Of a stretch of 64,000 nucleotides of DNA, positions 13,977 to 62,707 are shown in pieces (the first letter of the stretch is position 1; every line of letters starts with the position of its first letter). Both the position numbers and the translations under genes were made by a program. Below the pieces are notes generated by a model, which searched no databases, was not told the origin of the DNA, and saw only the letters and a list, made by a program, of their open reading frames with translations. The DNA comes from Balamuthia mandrillaris (taxonomy: Eukaryota). The stretch covers positions 124,001 to 188,000 of the forward strand of contig JAVKOQ020000057.1 of assembly GCA_031835245.2 (NCBI GenBank). Reading direction: 5' to 3'.

Positions 13977-14576
13977 CTAAAACCAGTATTGTGGATACCG
14001 ACCGCTTCGCGGAAGATTGTTGGTGATGAGCGCCACTATTGACATTAAAATGGCACCACCAGCCGCTAATGGAATAAACAAGAAGCCTTCATCCTGGAAC
14101 GCTTCCGAGCCTAAATAAACCGAGAGGGAAACAAAAACAAACGGTTTTGGTAAATAAGAAAGAAGAAAGAAGAAAAAAGCAACTTACCAACGATAGGAAT
14201 AATCGCAGTAGCTGCAGCAGGCGGATGCAGCGTGTTGGTCATTTGCATGTTGACGATAGCCAACGCCACAGAAATGGCACCTATCACCATGCGTGAGTCC
14301 TCCGAAGTTACCGCCTGGTTCAGCACCACGCCTATAAAGGCTGACAGTGTGTGACCTCCTATCACGTTTCGTGGTTGAGCTAATGGACTCTGCAGGGAGG
14401 AAGAAGAAGGGAAGAATAAGGCAGGGTGAAGAAGAACAATATGGGCAAAAACGTTTCGAAAACGATACCGCAGGAGCTCCGTAGAGAAGTGCAGCAGAAG
14501 CACAGTAGCTCAGCAGAAAAAAGCCAAGATCTTGATCTGTGAAGAAATACCTTTCCAGCACAGCTATCTTTATGTT

Positions 14577-14617
<41 letters not shown>

Positions 14618-15375
14618 AAGAGAAGAAACAAGCAAAGAAGAGAGATGGGGGTTGGTGTTTCTTATGGTGTTGGAAAAAGCGTGATACTTACAATGAGGAT
14701 GCCACAGAAAGCACCCAAGAAACTCCACGCCATCGTCCAAACGGAGAGAGGCAGCTGCGGTCCTGCTATCAGCCCATTCTTTCCTTTCATCTTCACCAGA
14801 AATGGGAGCGGATACTCTAACTTTGGTTATTTTTTTTCCGAAGACAAGAAAGAAGCAATAATAAGATGACGAAGAAGAAGCAAGAAGAAGCAAGAAGAAG
14901 AAGAAGAAGAACAAGAACAAGAAGAAGAAGAAGAAGAAGAAGAAGAAGAAGAACAAGAACAGGAAGAACAAGAACAAGAAGAACAAGAACAAGAAGGACA
15001 CAAAGAAAAGGAAACATAAAAGAAATAACATACGCGATAGTCATAGTTTTTAGGAGATGGAAACAAAGCAGCGGAGCACTCTCGGAACCTATCTGTGACC
15101 CTGTTCCACGCTCTTCGCGTCTTCCCCTCCACGTTTTTAGTGCCTTGCTCCTCCGCCCCAGGCAGCACTCTCTCCATCGCCCCACCCGGCAGCTGCACTA
15201 TTTCTCCGCCGTCCTCGTCGTTGCTGCCGCTGTTGTGGGCGCGGATGCCTCCCATCTCCATCATCTCCAACCCCTCGTCCTCCTCCTCCTCCTCCTCCTC
15301 CTTCTGCTCTGCCGCCGCCCTGCTTTCCTCCGGTTCTTCCGCCTCCGCCTCTACCACTGCTCCTTCCTGCGCCAT
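13977..15375 (-). CDS. HPP family membrane protein, copy 1
   Basis: SYCASAALLYGAP, SPLAQPRNVIGGH, TNTLHPPAAATAII, C-terminus NNLPRSGRYPQYWF*. Confidence 0.92.
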
Positions 15376-15942: not shown

Positions 15943-16432
15943 CTACCACCAATAGAGAGGGTAGGAGGTGCGGCGCGATATGTTTCCGGTGATGAGGGCA
16001 ACCAGCAACATGAGGAGAGCTCCCCCCGTGGCTAGCAGCACGTACAAAAACCCTTCATCTCTTATTCTGTCTGAGCCTTTTGTTTGTTTGTTTGTTAGTT
16101 TGCATAAAGGTTGGTGTGTTCAGAAGGAATACAGACAACACAACATAAAAGAAACCAAAACCACAAACAGTTAGAAACAGAAACAAACGAACGAACCTAC
16201 AATGGGAATGATAACAGTGGTGGCACCAGGCGGATGCAGCGTGTTGGTCAACTGCATCACGGCGATGGACAACCCTACGGACATGGAGGCTACCACCACG
16301 CGAGAGGTTTCGGAGTAAGCAAACTTGCTGAGAAGGACTCCCAGGATGGCTGATATGAAGTGTCCTCCTATCAAGTTACGAGGTTGAGAAAGCGGACCCT
16401 TTGTATTTAGTTTGTGTTAATGGTCGCTTAAA

Positions 16433-16471
<39 letters not shown>

Positions 16472-17372
16472 CAGAGGCAGGGACAGCGACAGAGACAGAG
16501 ACAGAGACAGAGGCAGAGACAGAGAGACAGAGACAGAGACAGAGAGACAGAGAACGGAAGAAGAGAAGAAGCAAACGAAAATAAAAGAGCGAGGAGAAAG
16601 AAGAGGAGAATAAAATACATGAGGAGCGCCATAAATAAGTGCAGCAGAAGCACAGTAGCTCATAATAAAAAAGGTAAGATCCCTTTCTTCGAAAATGAAA
16701 CGGTCCAACATGGATATCTGTTCGTTGAAATAGAAGAGAGAACACGAGCAGGCGAGAACGCGAGAAGTGAGAAGGGAAGAGCAGCAAAGAAGAGAAACAA
16801 AGAAGAGGACACAAGCTAACGTACCACGAGGATGCCGCAAAAAGCACCAACAAAACTCAGCACAATGGTAGAGAGAGGCAAAGGGAGCTTTGGACCGGCG
16901 CTGAAGCCACGTTCTCCCTTCATCTTGGCAAAAAACGTTCTCAGGTTATACTCCATCTTTTGTTTTTGATTTTAAACCGAAAAATTAATAAGAAAAAGAA
17001 GAAAGACGAAATAAGATGAAAGCGAAAACGAACGCAACGGTCTTGCTGCGCGGGAGGAGGAAACAAGGCCGCAAAGTAAGCCACTATCCAGCCCTTGGCG
17101 GAGTGCCACCACTCTCTCGTGTTCCGCTTGAGCCACCACCGCTCCTCATAGCTCAGAATTTCCGGGTCGTAAGGCACCTTTTTCTCCTCCGCCAGTTCTT
17201 CCGGCCGGCTCGGTGGTTCTTGCGGACCAGGTCCCGAGGGATCATCCCCTCCAGGCGGCTCGCATTCCATCATCAAGATGAACTTTTGGTCTTCCTCTTC
17301 ATCGCCCACCACCGGCGTCCTTTCGGTTGGTTGTTGCGCCGACATGACCTCCTCCTCTGCCTTCTTCCCCAT
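15943..17372 (-). CDS. HPP family membrane protein, copy 2
   Basis: SYCASAALIYGAP, PLSQPRNLIGGH, TNTLHPPGATTVII, C-terminus GNISRRTSYPLYWW*. Confidence 0.92.
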
Positions 17373-42767: not shown

Positions 42768-44529
42768 TCAAAAGTTGTTCGTGTTGTGCACCATTCGTGA
42801 CATCTGCAACACTTGATCCAGGTCGACACGGTAATACGTATCCGTGAGGTCACGGTTTCCGCCACCAAAGCCTACGAGCAAATGGTGCACCGACTGAAAG
42901 CCAAGAAAAAGAAAAAGACAAAGACGAGCGACAGAACAGAAGGACAAGCAGAAGGAGAAGGAAGCGGAAGCAAAGCAAGTGCATTCCTTCTCCAGGAGAG
43001 GGTTTGGCTGGTCCGGCCTCCTCGCCGCTGCCTCTTCCAAGAAAGACCACAGTGGCGGCCCCACCTCCTTTTGGGTATGCAGCGACAACTGGTCTTCAGA
43101 AGGGGCGTACGTTGTTCCATCATCCGCATACAAGCAGGTATTGGCCATCCCAAGAATACCGATACATAAGATAGACCACATGAACCTCCGAAGGAAAGAC
43201 TTTGGGGTGGAGGAATGGAGGCCAAGCAGGCCAAAGCCCTTTGCAAGGCACTGGCAGATAATAAGGAGAAGCCCACCTCGTTCTCCTCTCCCGAGGGCAT
43301 CGCCAGCTTTGGGGACGAGCTGTTGGTGTGTTGGGACCACAACGACGCCAACAACAAGAAGAAGAACAAGAAGAACAAGAAGAACAAGAACGAGAAGCAT
43401 TGGAACTATTTCAAAAACATCGTACCATAGAAAAAAATAAGACCTTTCTGGTTGTGAGGCTTACGTCTCCTTTCTCCAGGTCCGCGATCATTTTTTGCAG
43501 CAAACAAGACCAGTAGCGGGAGAGCAGCTTGATGGGTTTGTTTGTCTCGCAGATTGTCTTTTGTTTAAAACAATAAGAAAGGCGAGGTGGCATGAGCAGG
43601 GACAAATCATCACCACATTGGCGGAGAGAGTGTGCGTTTTTTTTTTGCTTTATTTTTCTTGTTTACAATATGCAAAGAAGTGGGGAAGAACAGCGGCTGG
43701 GCTGGCGGGAGCGGAAATACCATTTGGGTGAGCTGCAGGAGCAGGACAAAGCGCTGGGAGGACGTGACCGGTCTGGGTTTGCAGGCACGCTTGTGTGGCC
43801 CTCTCCGCACTGCAATGCGGACGGAAACTGTGTGAGTGATTCACAATCGGGAGTCAACCAGCAGGCATACGTACTTCAGGGCTTGTCTGAATTCTTCCAA
43901 AGACTCTGCAGTGACCACAGGGCGAGGGGTGGGGGCGACTAAGGCCCTAGTTAGCACCTCCATTCGCGCATCAAGTGCGTCCAGTTTTGCGTTGGTCCCT
44001 TCTACCGCTGCGTCCAGTTTTACGTTGGTCCCTTCTACCGCTGCCGTTAGCACGTCAAGCTTGCGCTGAATGTCTTGCAAAAGCTGGGAAGGATGGAATG
44101 AGTTGTTGGGCCGAGCAAGTAAACACAACACTGAAAAACTTACGTCGTTTGTGGTCAAGACGTTCTCCACGGCGTCTGCTATGCTGTCGAAAGGGAATCG
44201 GCTGACCTCGTCCGCTACTTCATCCAAGGGAAACTCGGCCACCGTTCTAGCCAATTTCCCCAGCTTTTTGATCCCTAAGGCCGCTCGCTTGTTCTTGTCT
44301 TCAGAGGTCTGCCCCTCGTCTACTTCTTTCTCCTTCTCCCCCTCGCTACGAGGTCGCTTTCTTCCTCCTGCTGTTGTTGGCGCTCTTGCCCCTCCTTCGA
44401 CAGAAAGAAATCAACAAGCCGTTGGACGATCTCCGGCTTGTTCCCTTCGTGGGAGATGCCCACCGCCAGGCACAGCGGCCTCAAAAATTCCAAGGTGGCA
44501 GCACGGAGCTTCGCTTCCGGTATGATCAT
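42768..44529 (-). pseudogene. SAP-domain, NLS and coiled-coil gene (multi-exon) with a frameshift; possibly transposon-associated
   Basis: KLRAATLEFLRPLCLAVGISHEGNKPEIVQRL fits the SAP pattern. A frame change near 44400 is needed to reach GGRKRPR and downstream exons, which have GTAAG...CAG introns; ends MVHNTNNF*. Confidence 0.55.
43976..44041. repeat. 33-bp tandem duplication encoding AVEGTN(V/A)KLDA twice
   Basis: tgcgtccagttttRcgttggtcccttctaccgc occurs twice. Confidence 0.9.
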
Positions 44530-45869
44530 CCTACTACTGTTTTTTTTTTGGCTGCAGAATAAAAAGGCTCGGGCCTTGTTTTAGGAGAGGAAGTCGTTAC
44601 GGGGCCTGCTCGGATCACAAGGATCAGTCGTGTCGTCTTGACAAAAAGGTCGAGCGTTCAGGAACGCTTGATCTACGTGTGTTTTACTGCTTTTGCTGAC
44701 ATAGCCCAGATCAAAAGTGCTGAGGAGGTGCACAAACTGAGAAGTGTTTTATTGAGCTGCAGCTTTTGTGCTCTCAGACTGCAGAGGACGGCGAGTGGGC
44801 TGCAACTTAGCAAAAGAAGCTGTGAAGGGACTAAAGCGGCGCTACGCAGCAAAATTTGGTGGGGAAAAAAAAGGACAACACTTTGCCTTCTCTGCTATTT
44901 TAGCTGGTGGCAATTTCTGTCAACTGCTTTGCTTTAGTGAAGGGATGTGTAATGGAACCTAGGAAGCCATTCTCCCACTTGCTTTATGCTATAGCTTCCT
45001 GGGTTCCACTACACGTCCCTTCTTCCTCCTCACATTGCTTTTGTACTGCCTCTATCCAACAGTTTACATCTACTATAAATCTGTTTCCATTCAACTTGAT
45101 TTTTGGTGTAGGCCTTGGTGAGGAGCTTGGTGAAGAGAAGGTGGCGTTGCTTTCTTTCTGGAGCTGCCTTTTTCACCATGTCTTGGCTTCTTGCATAATT
45201 TTTTCCAAAAATTACACTTTTGTGATATATCACAAAAGACAAATACATGCAGCTGCATTAGTTGACAGAAATTTTTTTCATAAAAACAAGAACAAAAAAT
45301 AAGAAGTGTGTAAAAAGAAAACAATAACAGGAGATGTACCTTGCTGGAAAGTGCATGAACCGTAGTCCTCCATATTTTTGTGCCCATGCATCATGCCTTG
45401 TTCTTCCTTATGGCCGCTGCTTCCAAGGAAAAAATTCATCAAGTCTAAACAGACATGAGAAGAGCTACCAGTTCCACTTCTGATCCAAAGATTGCAGCAC
45501 TTGTGTATCCATTCCACCAGAACAGAGGACTGGGAAAAAACATGATGACCCAACGTTTGTCTGACTGGTCATAGTAGTTGTAATACAGATTGGAGGGAGG
45601 AAGAAGGAATCATGAGAGAGAAGAGCATACCAAATGCCTGACTGGTTGCAAGTATTGTAATGAGAACACAGAGAAAAACCAAATGAAAGAAGAGCTTGAG
45701 CAGGCAAGAACAGAGAAGTTGATCCAGAGATTAGCCAAACATGAATAGAGATTACAAAGGCTTGTTTTGAAAGAGCAAGCAACAATGATCTTCTAAACAG
45801 TGTCAAGAAGCTCTTTGATGCCTATCATATCCTCTACACTTTCTTCAAAACATAGTTGGATCAATGAAT

Positions 45870-47325
45870 AAGCAGGAAAACACTTGAACTAGAGTTAAGA
45901 AGCGAACTTAATGCAATCAACAAAGTGGCAAAAAACGGAATGAAGGTAATGATAAATGACAAGGAAGTGAAAGCAAACCTCTTTTTGACAGTGGACCTTA
46001 AAGCATTGAAGGAGATAAGTGGAATGAACTCCTTTTATGCAAGTAACATGAAGTATTGCTGCTTTTGGTGTTTTGCAAAAAGAAAACATATCAGACAACA
46101 AGTAGTATTCAAAGAAAAAATACAGTTTTGAACAGCAGCAAAAGCAATAAGTCTCTTACCAAACATAAACACAAAAAACTTCAACAAAAGTGGGCAGAGA
46201 TAATAGAAGAAGAAAAACAACATCCAGGCCTCATGATTTAGAAATCAATTGAGCATCTAAAAGCATCAACACAAAAAACATCAGCAAAAAAGCATTGTGG
46301 AATAATGAACAAACCTCTACTTTTCTTTTTACCTGAATAAGTTATTCCTTGTCTTCTTCACTTGGTGATGGGAATTGTGTGAAAGATGTTGAAGAAAACC
46401 ATGGAACTGTTATACCACTCTCCCATAATACCTATCCCTATCTCTCCTTGTATATATATCTCTTTCTTTCATTTTATTAAAGGTCTTTTCCCTACACCTA
46501 TCGAGTTGGTGTCCATTAGGTTGTTTCCCTACTAACCTTATTACAGAACTTGTTGATGAGAAAGATGAAGAACTGCAACAGCTTCTCGTCATAGTATTTG
46601 AAAGCATGGACATACATTTATCTGACAAAGAAGGAATGAATATGAAAGAACAGATAAAGGACAGTCGTTTGAACCAAACTGAGTACTTACACATTTTAGA
46701 GAATTATTAAAAGCTACTTAATTGTTTTGGAAAGTTAGAAGAAGAAGAAGAAGAAGAAGAACAAGAACAAGAAGAACAAGAAAAAGAAGAAGACAAACAA
46801 CAACAGCAGCAAAAGGAAAAAGAAAAGGAACAGGAAGAGAAAAAGATGAAAGAAGAAATACCTGATGAAGAAAGTGACTTTCACATTTTTGAGAGCTTGG
46901 TTCCATTGGTTCTTTGTTTTAACAATGGTGATGGCAATGGTGATGGCAATGGTGATGGTGATGGCAATGGTGATGGTGATGATGATGGCAATGGTGATGG
47001 CAACAGTGACAGTAACAGCAATGATAAAGAGAAAGAGGAAGAGAAAGAAAAGGAGAAGAAAAATAGGAAAAAAGTTAGTCTTAAAGAAAAGCAACAGCAG
47101 GAGCATTCACAATCACAACAAGATTCTACACTAGAAGCATTGAGAAAGATACGGAAAGCATGGCAAATGTTTCATCATACATGTGTATTGGCACTGCAAG
47201 AGAATATTGATATTTCAAGTGATGAATGGGAGAAAGAAGCAGCTCAATTCAAATATGCCTTCTTCAAAGCATGGAGCCCAGAGGACTGGACTACTTATAT
47301 GCATATTTTTGTTACACACAACAGG
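45870..47325 (+). mobile_element. Degenerate RAG1/Transib/Chapaev-type DDE transposase core
   Basis: Colinear motifs: SRKTLELEL; LFLTVDLKALKEISGM...KYCCFWC; GIMNKPL...VIPCLLHLVMGIV; SRLNQTEY; W...WTTYMHIFVTH. Multiple stop codons, truncated at both ends. Confidence 0.72.
46922..47022. repeat. (GATGGCAATGGT)n-like repeat encoding GDGN inside the transposase relic
   Basis: Directly visible. Confidence 0.85.
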
Positions 47326-48329
47326 CCGTCTGCTTCCCTCTTCGAATTCTGCTTTGCTATTCTTTTTTTTTAACAGTGTCGACATGAGAAGCAGTCATTT
47401 ACCAAAGATAGGTAATTGTCTACAAATACGGCTGGATTTTTCTCCTGCCACGTAAGCTTTTCCTCCGCAGTATGACTCTAGATAAAAGAGTGAGCAGGGA
47501 AAGGCGGAGAGGAAACGGAACGAAATGACTACTCCTGCACCCTCTGGCTCCGCCAGCTCAACCGCGAACCAACCCTCCCCTGTTGGCGGCCTCACCGGGT
47601 GGCTTTCGACCCTGTGGCAATTGATCTATCCACCAGCTCAACACAGAATGCTATTGGAACAGCTTGAACGAGCATCCCAGGAGGACGAACAGAGATGGAG
47701 ACAACGGGTAGCAGCCCAGGGATCGGGGCTCTTCCGCTCAGAAAAGTGATGTGATTGGGTCGAAGACGGATGCTCCCTCCTTCGGTTTCTTCACCTCAAA
47801 CATATGTTATCGGTGAAAGTCACAGATAAAAAAAAACAGGAGGTTGAGTTTTTATTTCCGTTCAAAGAACCGCTGAGATTGGACTCGTCAGTAAGCAAAA
47901 CAACACATGTCCTTATCCCTCGAAGCTCGAAGCCACTACTGCATTGGCCGGTCGTTCAGCTAGCTTCACGGGCGAGCCTCGGGTTCCCCCTCATAACTCA
48001 TTTCCGGTAGTCGCTAAACCGTTGAACGATGGCGAATGTGGCAAGTTGGTACCAAAAAATTGCCAAAAAACGCCAAATGCCTGGCGCTCCGTGGCATCAG
48101 CGCCACATAGACAAAAAGTTCATCGCGCAATACGTGGCTTGGCACCGGCGGTGACGTGTGTGGCTTGGTGGAGCTTTGTCCAGGTTTTCGCAGTAGCAGA
48201 AGAAAGAGCCATTTGGGAAAACAAAACAAAACAGACAGACAGACGGAACTGGTGCGAGAAGGAGGGAGGAACAGCGGTGGTGGTCGGCACTCTTGTATGT
48301 AAATAGTGTCCAACACTGAGGAAAGCGTG

Positions 48330-57375: not shown

Positions 57376-60300
57376 TTACTGCATAGGCAAAATAGAAACA
57401 CGAAGTCCTGGCAACCAATGCTTGTGCTCATCCCCGTAGTACAAGTAGGCCGAGGAAGAGGGCCCTGTAAACGTTCCTGCCACGCTGGCCACCGCCTCCA
57501 CCCTTACCTCCTTCTGTTCTCCTGGTGCCAATGAACGCCAGTAGAGAACGAGCTCGCGGTTGCCGCCGCGAAGCTCAAAGAAAGAGATCTCTCCGCTTCG
57601 AACGAGTTCCTGCAATTGTTCGTACCGAGGCTCGAGGCCAGCGGGAATGCCGATGCGAGCTAATGCCATTCCGGTTCCTCCTTCTTGGTTCTTGTTGGCG
57701 AGGCGAACTTGGATAAAAGCGGTGTCGCCTTCAGGGAGAACGTGAAGAGGAGAAGGAGAAGAAGTAGAATCTGGAGAGATAAAAGAGGTGGAGAGGGAGA
57801 GTTGACATTGAGAGGAGGAAGGAGGGAGAGGAGAGAGGTGTTGGATGAGAATGGAGTAGGGGATGCCGCTAGAACAGGTCTCGCCATCTGGGTAATAAGA
57901 CAATTCCAACGTGTACTTTTGGTTTGGTTTGACTGGTTGAAGCACATCCTCTAATATTATGTTTTGTAAAGTAAGTCACCCGTCAAGAAAGACAGAAACA
58001 GAGAAGAAAGAGCTAACCAGGGAAGAATAACGGTTCCATCGTCTCCTTAGTAAAATGAAGTCGATGCACTTCCTCGCCATTCACTTTGAGCGCAACAGCA
58101 CCTCCGCAGGGAGAGCCTTTCGCGATGTCATACCTAATTATAGCCTTAAGGGCGAGAATGGTGCCTTGCGTGCTGCCAAACTTGCCATCCTTGCAGCGAG
58201 CCACCAACCACTTCATGCCTTCCTCCACATTCGCGCTGAACTCATCGTCTTCCATCCACACCAACAAAGCTAAACTCTGTTCAAAATCAAAATTAGTTTA
58301 GACTCTAACAAGCAAATAACCTAAAGACAAACCGTTGTTTCAATTAACAAAGAGTCACCGCAAGACATGGTAATAGAGGTCTTGGCGCCCACCACGCTTC
58401 CATCTGATGCATTTTGGTATTTGATGAGAGAGCGGGCCAATGACTTGGCCTCCTCTCTGTGACCCAAGTGGAAGAGAGAGCTAGCCACCAAGGCCAAGAA
58501 ATAAGGGTCTTCGGAAGAGCGAGCAAGTTCTTGCAGCTTATTTAGTTGTGGTCCTAGCAGATCTACTTTTACCCCTGCTGATGTTAATGCCCATACCGCG
58601 TAGGCACTTTTTTGTTTACGTAAATAAGACGAAACAACGAAGCAAGAAGAATGGAGTAAGTGTACTTGGTAATGTCTACTGGAGCGCGGCCGAAAGAGTC
58701 AAGAGCTTGTTCACTTCTTTTAAATCCTCCGTTGTCATCGTCTTTGATGGACAACAGCCATGCCTTTGTTCTCTCTATTAACGCCTGCATCCATAAAAAA
58801 AAGTAAGAAGGATGAAAGAGAGCTGGAAGGGGAGAGAGAGAGAGAGAGAGAGAGAGTAAGAGTTTGGATAGGGTCACGAAACAAACCTCAATGCCAGAAA
58901 GATTAGGCATGACGCTAGCCATCTCGACAAACTCCATGAGGCCATACGCAGAGAGGGCGTCATGTGGTGGCGTACTGCCAAACCATTCAAAGCCGTCCTC
59001 CTTCGTTTCAAAGCCCTGGAGCCTATCATATCCTTTTGATCGGAACGTATAAATATGGCTGAAGCAGAACAGAGACGTAACAAAAAAATAAAGAGTAAAA
59101 CCTTTTTCCAAAATATTAGTAGCTCGCGTGACCAAAGGCGGCGGAACATTGGAGTGCGTTTGGAAGTACTTGAGAGCGAGGATCAAGGGATAGATGGTGG
59201 AGCTGCTCTGTTCGAAGCAGCCATAAGGCTCACGTATGAGCGCCTCCAAAGCTTGCAGCAAGTTGGCTACAGGAGAAGGATAGATGCGAATCGAAGAACG
59301 GAATGATCTAACGTCACGTGGAAGTTCAAACGTTGATGTTGCTGCAGGTGTTGACGAGGAAATTGGCTTGAGCATTCCACCAGCGTGATGAGCTGTTGGA
59401 AAGCCCAATGGAACGACTTTGGCGTATCGTGTGACTTTATCATGATGCGACTGATCAGACATGGCACTCACCGAAATACCAAACGAAAAGGAATCAGGCG
59501 AATTCAACAACTCATTGGAAGAAGACGGTGAGGGTGAAAATGAGGAAGAAGTGGCGTTGCCAATGTCGATTTGAAGGAGCTGACGAGAACGCTGGCCAGA
59601 GTGGACGTTGACAGGAAGAAGATTTGCAGTGGCTCGAGGCATCGTTACAGATACTGGGAATGAAGAGGAAGGTAAAAGAAGAGAGGCCTCTGTCTTCACT
59701 CGAAGCGAGGAAGGGACCTCGTTGGCAATAGTAATGGGCACGATAATAGAGTCGCCTTCACTCACTTCGAATGGAAGTTTTATGTCCGCATAAAATGGTT
59801 TCTATGTGTTTGTATTTTGTTTCTTACATGAGAGAGAGAGAGAGAGACAACAGAAAATTTGTAACTAATACGGACCTTGGATTGGAAGAGGACATCAGTG
59901 CTGTTTATATCAGTTAAAGAAGAGGCCGTATCAAAGTGTAACCCATCGACCTGGATCCTAAAGGTGGTAATAGAATCGCTCAGAGTGAAGTTAAAGGTGT
60001 GCTCTCCAGAAGACATCTTGTTCCATGGCAGCCAATAGAGCGTCTCCGTGAAGTCAGAGCGCTCACTTCAAAATAACAAAGTCAATTGACATTGCCACAA
60101 AAACAAGAACAAAACTAAAAACAAATAAAACTAAACAACAAACCTATTTTGTTCCTTTCGTTGTGTTCTAATGTGGGCAAAAGCGCGTTGTGGATATGAA
60201 ACAACGGTCAGTGGTCGTACGTTGCTCCAACCATCTTCCGCTGCCGTAGTAGTCGTTACCTCGTCTTTTGCTTCCGCCTTTTCTCCTTCGGAAACACTTT

Positions 60301-62707
60301 CCACTGCAAATGCTAGGTTCTGTGCAATGTCAGCATCCTCCTCTAAAGCGCCTCTTCCCATATCTCTCATCGCTGCTCCTACCATAGCATCCATCATCAT
60401 CATTTCAGGAGCTCCTCCAGCCATGCCAAACATAGCCTCTGGCACCGCCTTGAACATCATGCGCCTATGCAGAGACGGAGGGGGTGGAGGCTCGTATCTC
60501 TCCTTTTGAGCAAACAGGCGTTCTGCTCTTGCTCTGTCTCTCTCGAAGAAGGTTACTGGATCCTCGAACACGAACTTTCTCCATCCTTGTGTTCCCAACA
60601 AAAGAGCCAGATTCCGGGATGCATTCTCCTTTCTCGCCACCGTTGTCTCAGCTTCGCGTTCTTCTTTCGATTTGGTCCAATCTATGGTTTCCACAGGAAG
60701 AAACGTGTTGGCATCTCCCAAGCGAGAAACTTCATCTTCCAAATACACCATCGCCGCCATTCGTGGTTGCCTTTGTCGCTTATCCACCATGTTGAGCGCT
60801 GCGTCATCCGTAACAACAACACTAAGAATGGCGTCTCGGGCCAGTCTTCCATTCTCATCTCTCGCCGTCACTTTCACGCTAACGTTCTCTCCCGGTGAGT
60901 AATGGCTCTTGTCGAGAGCTACATCGATGGCAAAGGCCTGTTCTCGCGGTTGTCTGAACAACAGTGTTTCTGCCTTGGCTACCCACCTCTTAACCTGTCG
61001 TTGTTTTTGAGGAATCTCTTTATCCGGGACTGTAAGTTGTTGGAGCTCAAAAGCAGTAACACGAAGGACACCCATGGGAGCAGAGGGCAGAGCAAAGCTG
61101 ATCTGATGCCGGCTATTTTGAGTGAAGCGCAGATAGTATGTAGCCAGCTCTCGCTCCTTTTGGAAGATGGATACTTTAACCTTTTGTGGTTTCTGGTAGA
61201 GTTCTATGACAACACAATAACAGAAATATAAGAAAAGCAAAAGAACAAACAAACACCAAATCCCAAAAAACAAACAAGGTAATTACCACTCGCGTCCCTT
61301 TTCCTGAGCGCAACGTCTACAACAGCGGGCTCCTCGTAGCCCAAAACTTTGTTTTTGGCGGTCAGCACAATGCCATCCTCTTCCACCTTTGGCAGGTCGA
61401 TGAACTTCTCGCGCAGTCCTCCCGGTTTGATCACTCGCAACTTGTAGGACATTCCAGCTTCTGGAACAAAGGAAAATAGCCCTCTGCCTTCATGGTCCGG
61501 GCGAATGCGATCTACTCCGTCAACCGTTTGTACATCATCATTCTCCTTTGACGCGACCACTAGCTCAGCTTCCAAGAGGTCCAAAGGATCGCCGGTGATG
61601 GGATTGGAGACCTGATAGTACACTTGATTGGGCCAGTCTGCCACCAAATATCCGCCTTCTGGATAAAAGTCGACCACGGCTCGTTGCAAGACGAGAGGAA
61701 TGGTCTTGGTTTTGGTTTCCAGCACTCCTCCATCGGAGACCACCGCCGACAGCGTTCCCGTTGGATCTTTTCCATCGTCACTGTTTTGGAAGCTGTCAGG
61801 AAGCTTGAAGGTGAAGCGAAAAGTGCCAGTGGAGGTATCCACTTGGAGTGGCGCTTCCTCGGGGGTAGAATAGACGAGCTGCCCGGAGATGTAAGCGCAA
61901 ATGCTCGCCGTGGCTGCAGAAGGAACGCCTCCTTCCCTTCGTCTCACGCGTCCCACGCCGGTCACAACGTCTCCTGGGCCATACCCTCCATTACCTTCTT
62001 CTTCTTCTCCTTCTCCTTCTCCTTCTGCTATCTTCCCTTCACCGTCGTCCCGCAGAAAGTGGAGGTCAATGTTCAAAGGAGAGGGTCTGTAGTCCCTAAT
62101 GGTGAAGTTGCGCTCCGCAGAGGGCAGCGAGGAGGAGTGGATGCGAAGCCGGTAGTCGCCGCCGGCCGTGCCAGCAGGGATCTGCCACACGTTGGAGTGG
62201 GCTGGCGTGCGGTCCTCGTCGTAATACTGCTGGTGGCGATACCACCGGCGCTCGTCCTCCTCTTCATCCTCCGGCTCAAAGTGCTGTGGGTCAAAGGAGT
62301 GAAGCACAGAGCCTTGGGGAGAGACGATCTCTGCCGTGTAGTAGGCGTCGATGGGCTCCTTGGTGAAGCTATCCAGCGCAAGCACTCGGAAGAACACTTG
62401 CTCGGTTGGTTTGTAGATCGGTTTATCTGTTGTTTGTTGAACAAAAAAAAATGATGAGAAGAAAAGAGAGGAAGGAAGAAAGGACAGGAAGGAAACCTGT
62501 GGAGATGTAGACGGCAGCCCTTTGGAAGCCTTGGTTGGGCGGGTAGAAGAACACCCGTGAGCCGTCCTCCTCCGGGTGGTCGTTGGCCTCGTCCCTGTTC
62601 TGACAAAACGCAATGGTGCTCAGCAGGACGAACATGCCAAAGCCCATGACCAGCCACATCTGCGTCTTCAACGTCATCGTAACCCCAAAACGGCGCAGCA
62701 CCGGCAT
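57376..62707 (-). CDS. Alpha-2-macroglobulin / thioester-containing protein, bacterial-type architecture, multi-exon
   Basis: TDKPIYKP (MG2), FYPEGG, LLLGTQGWRKF, FTETLYW...LSDSITTFRI, thioester EPYGCFEQ, FEWFG...LSAYGLMEF, STQGTILALKA, GMALARIGIPAG, SSAYLYY. Confidence 0.92.

Follow-up and report, generated by a model that had tools for sequence, protein, structure and literature searches.

A dead transposase gene of the RAG1/Transib/Chapaev kind in Balamuthia mandrillaris and its intact relatives

The window, which is the whole 64,000-nucleotide stretch of Balamuthia mandrillaris DNA analysed here, contains a dead transposase relic of the RAG1/Transib/Chapaev (CMCT) kind. A sequence-only reading had let the relic start at 45870, whereas the gene begins about 500 bp upstream, near the ATG at 45334, because the segments matched by a protein profile begin at 45349; the zinc fingers occupy 45349-45640. 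The features are listed below with their profile scores in bits and with matches to related proteins, among which P0045 (KAL6044905.1), P0027 (KAL6048928.1) and P0010 (KAL6066434.1) are subfamily representatives; S4 is another sample that carries a copy of the element.

45206..45333, + strand: 5' non-coding part of the element, its left side cut short; the S4 alignment begins at 45206
45334..45549, + strand: likely start codon and first C2H2-like zinc finger (CxHxxC...H...H), with one stop; 25 bits; tblastn matches to P0045 17-55, P0019 6-68 and P0022 66-128
45578..45760, + strand: second zinc finger and coiled coil in another frame, with stops; 18 bits; tblastn match to P0045 92-148
45868..45875, + strand: junction where about 140 codons, among them the first catalytic Asp, have been deleted internally, seen from the S4 contigs
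45874..46160, + strand: RNase H strand with the second catalytic Asp (45994) and CxxC (46060/46069), a stop at 46129 and a frameshift at 46160; 92 bits; 53% identity to P0045 358-451 (94 residues)
46161..46407, + strand: H-x-G..PL..VIPxLLH segment, with stops at 46239, 46338 and 46380; 65 bits; 51% identity to P0045 476-540
46408..46545, no strand assigned: high-copy insert of 138 bp with TG..CA ends and a 4-bp duplication (46404-46407 / 46546-46549)
46546..46736, + strand: helical insertion domain up to RLNQTEY, with a stop at 46708; 42 bits; 44% identity to P0027 492-549
46737..47106, + strand: in-frame low-complexity expansion of E/Q/K and G/D/N repeats
47107..47319, + strand: last helices and HxxxxH (47302-47319), the final Glu and 3' end missing; 61 bits; 55% identity to P0045 626-687
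Frame of 45760, + strand: LFLTVDLK..YCCFWC, with the Asp at 45994 and the Cys at 46060 and 46069
Frame of 46140, + strand: HCGIMNKPL and VIPCLLHLVMGIV
Frame of 45760 again, + strand: RLNQTEY and WTTYMHIFVTH, ending at 47319

The lesions of the window copy comprise at least eight stops, three frameshifts relative to the S4 copy (near 45563-45575, at 45715 and a one-base shift at 46160), the deletion of about 140 codons, the loss of the final Glu and the 138-bp insert. The earlier suggestion that the regions of the first Asp and the final Glu had been lost was borne out: profile positions 146-349 and those beyond 633, which cover these residues, are unmatched in the window, the S4 contigs diverge from it at 45868 and realign at 45875, and the similarity stops at 47319, some 20 residues short of the Glu. 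By eye, the loose ends of the S4 contigs resemble P0045 residues ~218-224 and 347-355. The DDE and zinc residues left are the second Asp (45994), the CxxC (46060/46069) and the HxxxxH (47302/47317); the window copy cannot make an active enzyme because two of the three catalytic residues are lost. At 45715 the window has 64 bases fewer than the S4 copy, which also carries 57-58 extra letters upstream of 45206 that are absent from the window, and a perfect 22-bp palindrome (45217-45238) lies inside the 5' non-coding part. The loop at 46737..47106 is acidic and variable in relatives too, a shorter acidic loop being present in P0010 and P0028.

All the motif strings quoted by the sequence-only reading exist on the + strand, in two frames. 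Reading through the stops, the route it had proposed, does recover them but is insufficient by itself, as the frameshift at 46160 and the insert at 46408-46545 were overlooked. A profile built from 16 database proteins, none of them from the window, aligns with six collinear segments between 45349 and 47319 (92, 65, 61, 42, 25 and 18 bits; profile positions 5-69, 81-145, 350-463, 444-507, 499-570 and 567-633), compared with a best score of 4.8 bits in ten codon shuffles of the window; of the six, only the first segment (92 bits) is circular, having served as the query by which the family was found. A tblastn search of the window with P0045 gave an E value of 8e-38, and no second relic was found elsewhere in the window. 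A contig of run X1 equals window positions 45164-46433 without a single difference; X1 may be the source sample, and the match therefore shows only that the breaks exist in the data. Five read-through fragments, with stops as X, matched no transposase family in Pfam, a word-indexed homologue search with the first fragment retained none of 345 candidates, and PDB sequence searches with the fragments returned no RAG1 or Transib at E 10.

The insert at 46408-46545 is probably a solo LTR of a very abundant retrotransposon. Its summed depth in X1 is about 29,000 versus 21 (lower in X5), and an X11 contig joins 46403 directly to 46546. An intron at 46430-46546 was considered and rejected, given the high copy number of the insert and the existence of this empty site.

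Contigs of sample S4 (runs X11 and X12) hold a copy about 92% identical to that of the window, with the deleted part and without the 138-bp insert; X11 and the window differ at 93 of 1113 bases. The depth of this copy in X11 is 74-109 versus 27-59 for the flanking pieces, a hint, and not a count, that S4 may hold several copies. One contig of another sample (X9) joins 44598 to 47510 and lacks the whole 2.9-kb block 44599-47509, which represents either the state before insertion or a later deletion. An X1 contig joining 45271 to 47403, with 27 letters on its short side, is perhaps a deleted derivative.

Transitions toward A/T in the window number 43 versus 15 in the X11 comparison. Among the 40 differences listed, and on the assumption that S4 lies nearer the ancestral state, CpG cytosines differ more often than others (7/24 versus 17/273, P 0.001), and the observed/expected CpG ratio is 0.16 at 45206-46730 versus 0.76 for the whole window. 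The C-to-T bias and CpG depletion suggest that the host methylates or otherwise mutates repeats, the decay pattern being compatible with, rather than proof of, CpG methylation.

Upstream of the relic, 44599-45193 is a patchwork of multi-copy repeats (depth 600-4400 in X1), and within it 44939-45022 form a strong hairpin (arms of 28 bp, z -8.2), perhaps a MITE, whose Rfam matches lie far under the threshold. The - strand at 43600-44580 carries a multi-copy gene that points away from the relic and shows 33-bp coiled-coil repeats and a weak match to the SAP domain (E 0.012); it probably lies outside the element, because the X9 contig without the relic still has it. Elsewhere in the window, a thioester-protein/alpha-2-macroglobulin-like gene with MG2 and TED domains occupies 58584-62619 on the - strand, while 14164-14643 and 16173-16795 form a 70% identical tandem duplicate, the second copy overlapping a weak HPP transmembrane match.

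Around the relic, no terminal inverted repeat or target duplication was found above chance. A scan for CA..TG ends, which together with a 2-5 bp target duplication mark the CMCT clade, covered 3843 pairs, of which the best agreed at 11 of 13 positions without a duplication and equalled shuffled sequence; this copy has apparently lost both ends. A 9-bp direct repeat at 44584 and 47506 was discarded as a target duplication, since the X9 junction does not collapse the repeat. With this copy truncated, the kelch and PHD Pfam domains of a linked RAG2-like gene were absent from the 20 window ORFs, and the PHD pattern from all six frames. No RNA data set was listed as containing the sequence. The available text of the respective sources gives 5-bp duplications and RSS-like ends as hallmarks of Transib (PMC1131882), CAC ends with 3-4 bp duplications as those of Chapaev (PMC4079192), and the Chapa domain as a further Chapaev trait (PMC4411706; 10.64898/2026.01.24.700457).

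Intact relatives were retrieved from protein databases. An unindexed phmmer search with the first fragment against 1.84 billion representatives returned nine proteins, eight of them with the same motifs; P0006, the top row, proved to be a protein of beta-helix repeats and was set aside, and P0012, a weak and distant row, was excluded from the profile alignment (A3) and from the tree. Cluster look-ups and two further searches raised the relatives named Balamuthia mandrillaris to 26, in several clusters, and added unnamed environmental ones. The intact copies that had been recommended for search do exist, as 14 of the 26 named relatives keep all six motifs (KxxxDG, DLK, CxWC, LH, HxxxxH and SNFxIE) and hence the full D-D-E set. 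The subfamily representatives P0027, P0010 and P0045 are 41-50% identical to each other, and the window fragment groups with P0045 in the tree (support 85/98) on a long branch. NCBI labels the relatives as hypothetical, trichohyalin-like or channel proteins. Their N-terminus consists of two CxHxxC..H..H fingers with a weak GLI/WT1 match (E 0.003), followed by a coiled coil. None of the 16 aligned members matches a Pfam transposase family. The viral contigs and prokaryote genomes searched contained no relatives, and one distant metagenome locus (L001) showed 26% identity. Two relatives have unusual architectures: the environmental protein P0009 ends in an Ulp1 (C48) protease domain, and in the Balamuthia model P0031 a transposase tail is joined to serine-recombinase/IS200-IS605-type sequence, likely through a nested insertion.

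In one cluster, eight members close to full length, found on eight contigs that differ in length, share 98-100% identity, and many fragmentary copies occur on different contigs besides. Some of these near-identical database entries could be duplicates from assembly, and the case for mobility rests on copy number and presence differences because no ends or target duplication were found. The relatives likely form a recently mobile, multi-copy transposon family.

An AlphaFold2 model of intact P0027, built from a 16-row alignment, has a mean pLDDT of 69.5, with values mostly of 80-90 over residues 270-640; P0027 is 41% identical to P0045, whose subfamily is nearest to the window. Among 48,161 chains compared with VIA, the best match was RAG1 (Z 22.3, 419 aligned residues, rmsd 4.4, 15% identity), followed by BbRAG1L (20.9), HzTransib (14.1, rmsd 8.0), the P element (11.8) and, after helical bundles, Hermes (7.9). 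Foldseek ranked the same model against RAG1 (E 2e-11), HzTransib (9e-9) and the P element (0.02). The fold lists held no Chapaev, CACTA, Plavaka or ESTA structure, so the ranking does not speak against those families. Atlas language-model features, whose thresholds are not calibrated for parts of proteins, placed an unnamed eukaryote cluster and RAG1 clusters at 0.96, clusters with 12-16% DUF1280 members at 0.94-0.95, CACTA at 0.89 and Plavaka at 0.88. The intact relatives are thus predicted to fold like the RAG1 core, with a split RNase H domain and a zinc-binding helical insertion. Predicted fold and language-model features uphold the earlier view of a RAG-related (CMCT) DDE transposase relic in a non-animal eukaryote. 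The proposed check against RAG1, Transib and CMC transposases was positive by these two approaches and negative by sequence profiles, neither Pfam nor PDB searches (L001 and the profiles A3 and A4 included) yielding such a transposase, the latter at E 10.

The observations are best explained, with a probability of roughly 0.6, by a broken transposase gene whose intact relatives combine a D-D-E triad and zinc ligands with a RAG1-core-like predicted fold, likely move by cut and paste, and represent an unclassified amoeba branch of CMCT. The family is new, its clade known, and the clade-level reading right; the label 'unclassified' is in part a default one. Intact copies would bind their own ends, likely by the two N-terminal C2H2-like fingers, would cut by nick and hairpin, and would reinsert elsewhere as a single-gene cut-and-paste system with no RAG2-like partner. 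This putative RAG1/Transib-like mode of action is drawn by analogy from RAG, BbRAGL and HzTransib, whose DNA cleavage proceeds through nick and hairpin according to the accessible part of PMC10629977. The window copy would have inserted, decayed with C-to-T bias and CpG loss, shed the first Asp as well as the 3' end that bore the Glu, and acquired the solo LTR.

Several other readings were weighed against this one. The relic could derive from a true Transib of Subgroup I, or from an orphan RAG1-like transposase, near the line leading to RAG1, which we regard as rather unlikely. By motif, the P0027 triad is D299, D387 and E649, with 262 residues from the second Asp to the Glu and 25 from the first His to the Glu, close to the values of about 254 and 25 in mouse RAG1, and the zinc-domain insert of the Balamuthia family is longer than that of insect Transib. 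RAG1 and BbRAG1L exceed HzTransib by 7-8 Z units, but the HzTransib entry is an apo crystal form (rmsd 8.0), which may depress its Z. RAG1 clusters come first among the named Atlas matches, and PMC9435367 describes RAG1L and Subgroup I Transib as having a long insert in the zinc domain, whereas identity to RAG1 is 11-16%, under the 26% mean between RAG1L and Transib cores (PMC9435367). Simple patterns for GRP[RK], CCGHC and RING are absent from all nine relatives compared, and SxxCxxC at the core zinc ligands, a Transib trait in the available text of PMC1131882, occurs in one of the nine (P0030) and is absent in the window. The six frames of the window contain no PHD-like pattern, and no ends were found. 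A divergent Chapaev transposase is improbable. DUF1280 corresponds to Chapaev, and a tree of RNase H domains places it with RAG1, as stated in the accessible text of PMC3985635, and Atlas clusters with 12-16% DUF1280 members reach 0.94-0.95, but DUF1280 proteins are a minority of those clusters and DUF1280 is unmatched in 16 of 16 members at E 1, as are Transposase_21, DUF1258 and Plavaka in all 16. The CxxC, LH and HxxxxH trio, called characteristic of Chapaev in the part of PMC4079192 available, is present; the Chapa domain, sought with three simple patterns adapted from the accessible text of PMC1131882, is absent from all 16, the N-terminus carrying GLI/WT1-like fingers (E 0.003) instead.

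A domesticated host nuclease gene family, with the relic an ordinary, non-mobile pseudogene, would agree with the failure to find ends and with transposition being unobserved, but it is very unlikely in view of the many copies, near-identical or fragmentary, that are spread over different contigs (an IS200/IS605-type annotation is fused to one of them), the lack of the locus in one X9 contig, and the repeat-like CpG depletion (0.16 versus 0.76). An origin of the motifs by chance in intergenic DNA of low complexity might be argued from the fragments, which retrieved nothing in Pfam, the PDB or the first homologue search; this is already refuted by the tblastn match to P0045 (E 8e-38) and by the six collinear segments, against at most 4.8 bits in shuffles. 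A further proposal goes beyond the preferred reading of an unclassified CMCT branch and is rather unlikely: Balamuthia and some environmental protists might harbour a recently active, RAG2-free lineage beside RAG1-like and Subgroup I Transib elements, in which tandem C2H2 fingers read the ends, replacing the nonamer-binding and CCGHC modules. If this is true, Amoebozoa would have no earlier example in the literature searched, and near-identical intact copies would be at hand for study.

The special bearing on V(D)J ancestry claimed at the outset was not supported. CxxC and HxxxxH are common to the whole CMCT clade, which is defined with C(2)C and H(3-4)H between the second Asp and the Glu (PMC12730594), RAG-specific marks are absent, ends were not found, and a complete protist transposon with RAG1L and RAG2L is already published, from Aureococcus. 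Fragments of RAG1L have also been published from further unicellular eukaryotes, and proteins resembling Transib from fungi, plants and bacteria (PMC9435367). In its available text, a broad DDE survey counts just 35 Transib transposases and terms amoebae minor hosts (10.1101/2021.09.26.461848), and that of the Balamuthia genome preprint states that many transposon fragments await annotation (10.1101/2025.02.25.640156). The literature searched, with Repbase, most subscription papers and supplementary figures outside its scope, held no report of the relic's family in Balamuthia or Amoebozoa, and none of six amoeba names occurs in the text supplement of PMC9435367, whose figure of species with RAG1L fragments lay outside the search. 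As DNA the locus is dead, and what makes it useful is that it leads to a transposase family present in many copies, unseen by Pfam and mislabelled at NCBI, whose intact near-identical copies would allow the ends and the target duplication to be defined. Defined ends would add an amoebozoan branch to the Transib-Chapaev-RAG1 tree, and the account of RAG origins would change only if that branch proved close to RAG1L.

Compared with known systems, the best predicted-fold match is to the RAG1 core and BbRAG1L (6dbi, 4wwx, 6b40), over P0027 residues ~205-665, and the likeness extends to the D-D-E triad with CxxC and HxxxxH between the second Asp and the Glu. At 11-16% identity, however, the Balamuthia family is without RING, NZD/Chapa, GRPR/K and CCGHC patterns, carries a pair of C2H2-like fingers and a coiled coil ahead of the core, and shows no RAG2-like gene in the window. 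AanRAGL of the alga Aureococcus is likewise a RAG-related transposase in a unicellular eukaryote, but it has RAG2L, asymmetric RSS-like ends and 5-bp duplications (PMC9435367), none of which was seen for the Balamuthia relic. Chapaev (DUF1280) and the other CMCT families (EnSpm/CACTA, Mirage, Plavaka, ESTA and Lanisha; PMC12730594) share the CxxC, LH and HxxxxH motifs and Atlas values of 0.88-0.95, whereas the Balamuthia family has no Pfam match to DUF1280, Transposase_21 or Plavaka and no Chapa domain. Transib (HzTransib, 6pqn; Subgroups I and II of PMC9435367) resembles the Balamuthia family in its RAG1-type fold (Z 14.1, Foldseek E 9e-9) and, as far as the window shows, in being a single gene without RAG2, but lacks the extra N-terminal fingers, and its CAC ends and 5-bp duplication were not found for the relic. 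The closest counterparts remain the Balamuthia proteins KAL6044905.1, KAL6048928.1 and KAL6066434.1 and their clusters, which belong to different subfamilies and are intact or nearly so where the window copy is broken, and which have the same parts in the same order, with 51-55% identity between the window and P0045 in three core segments.
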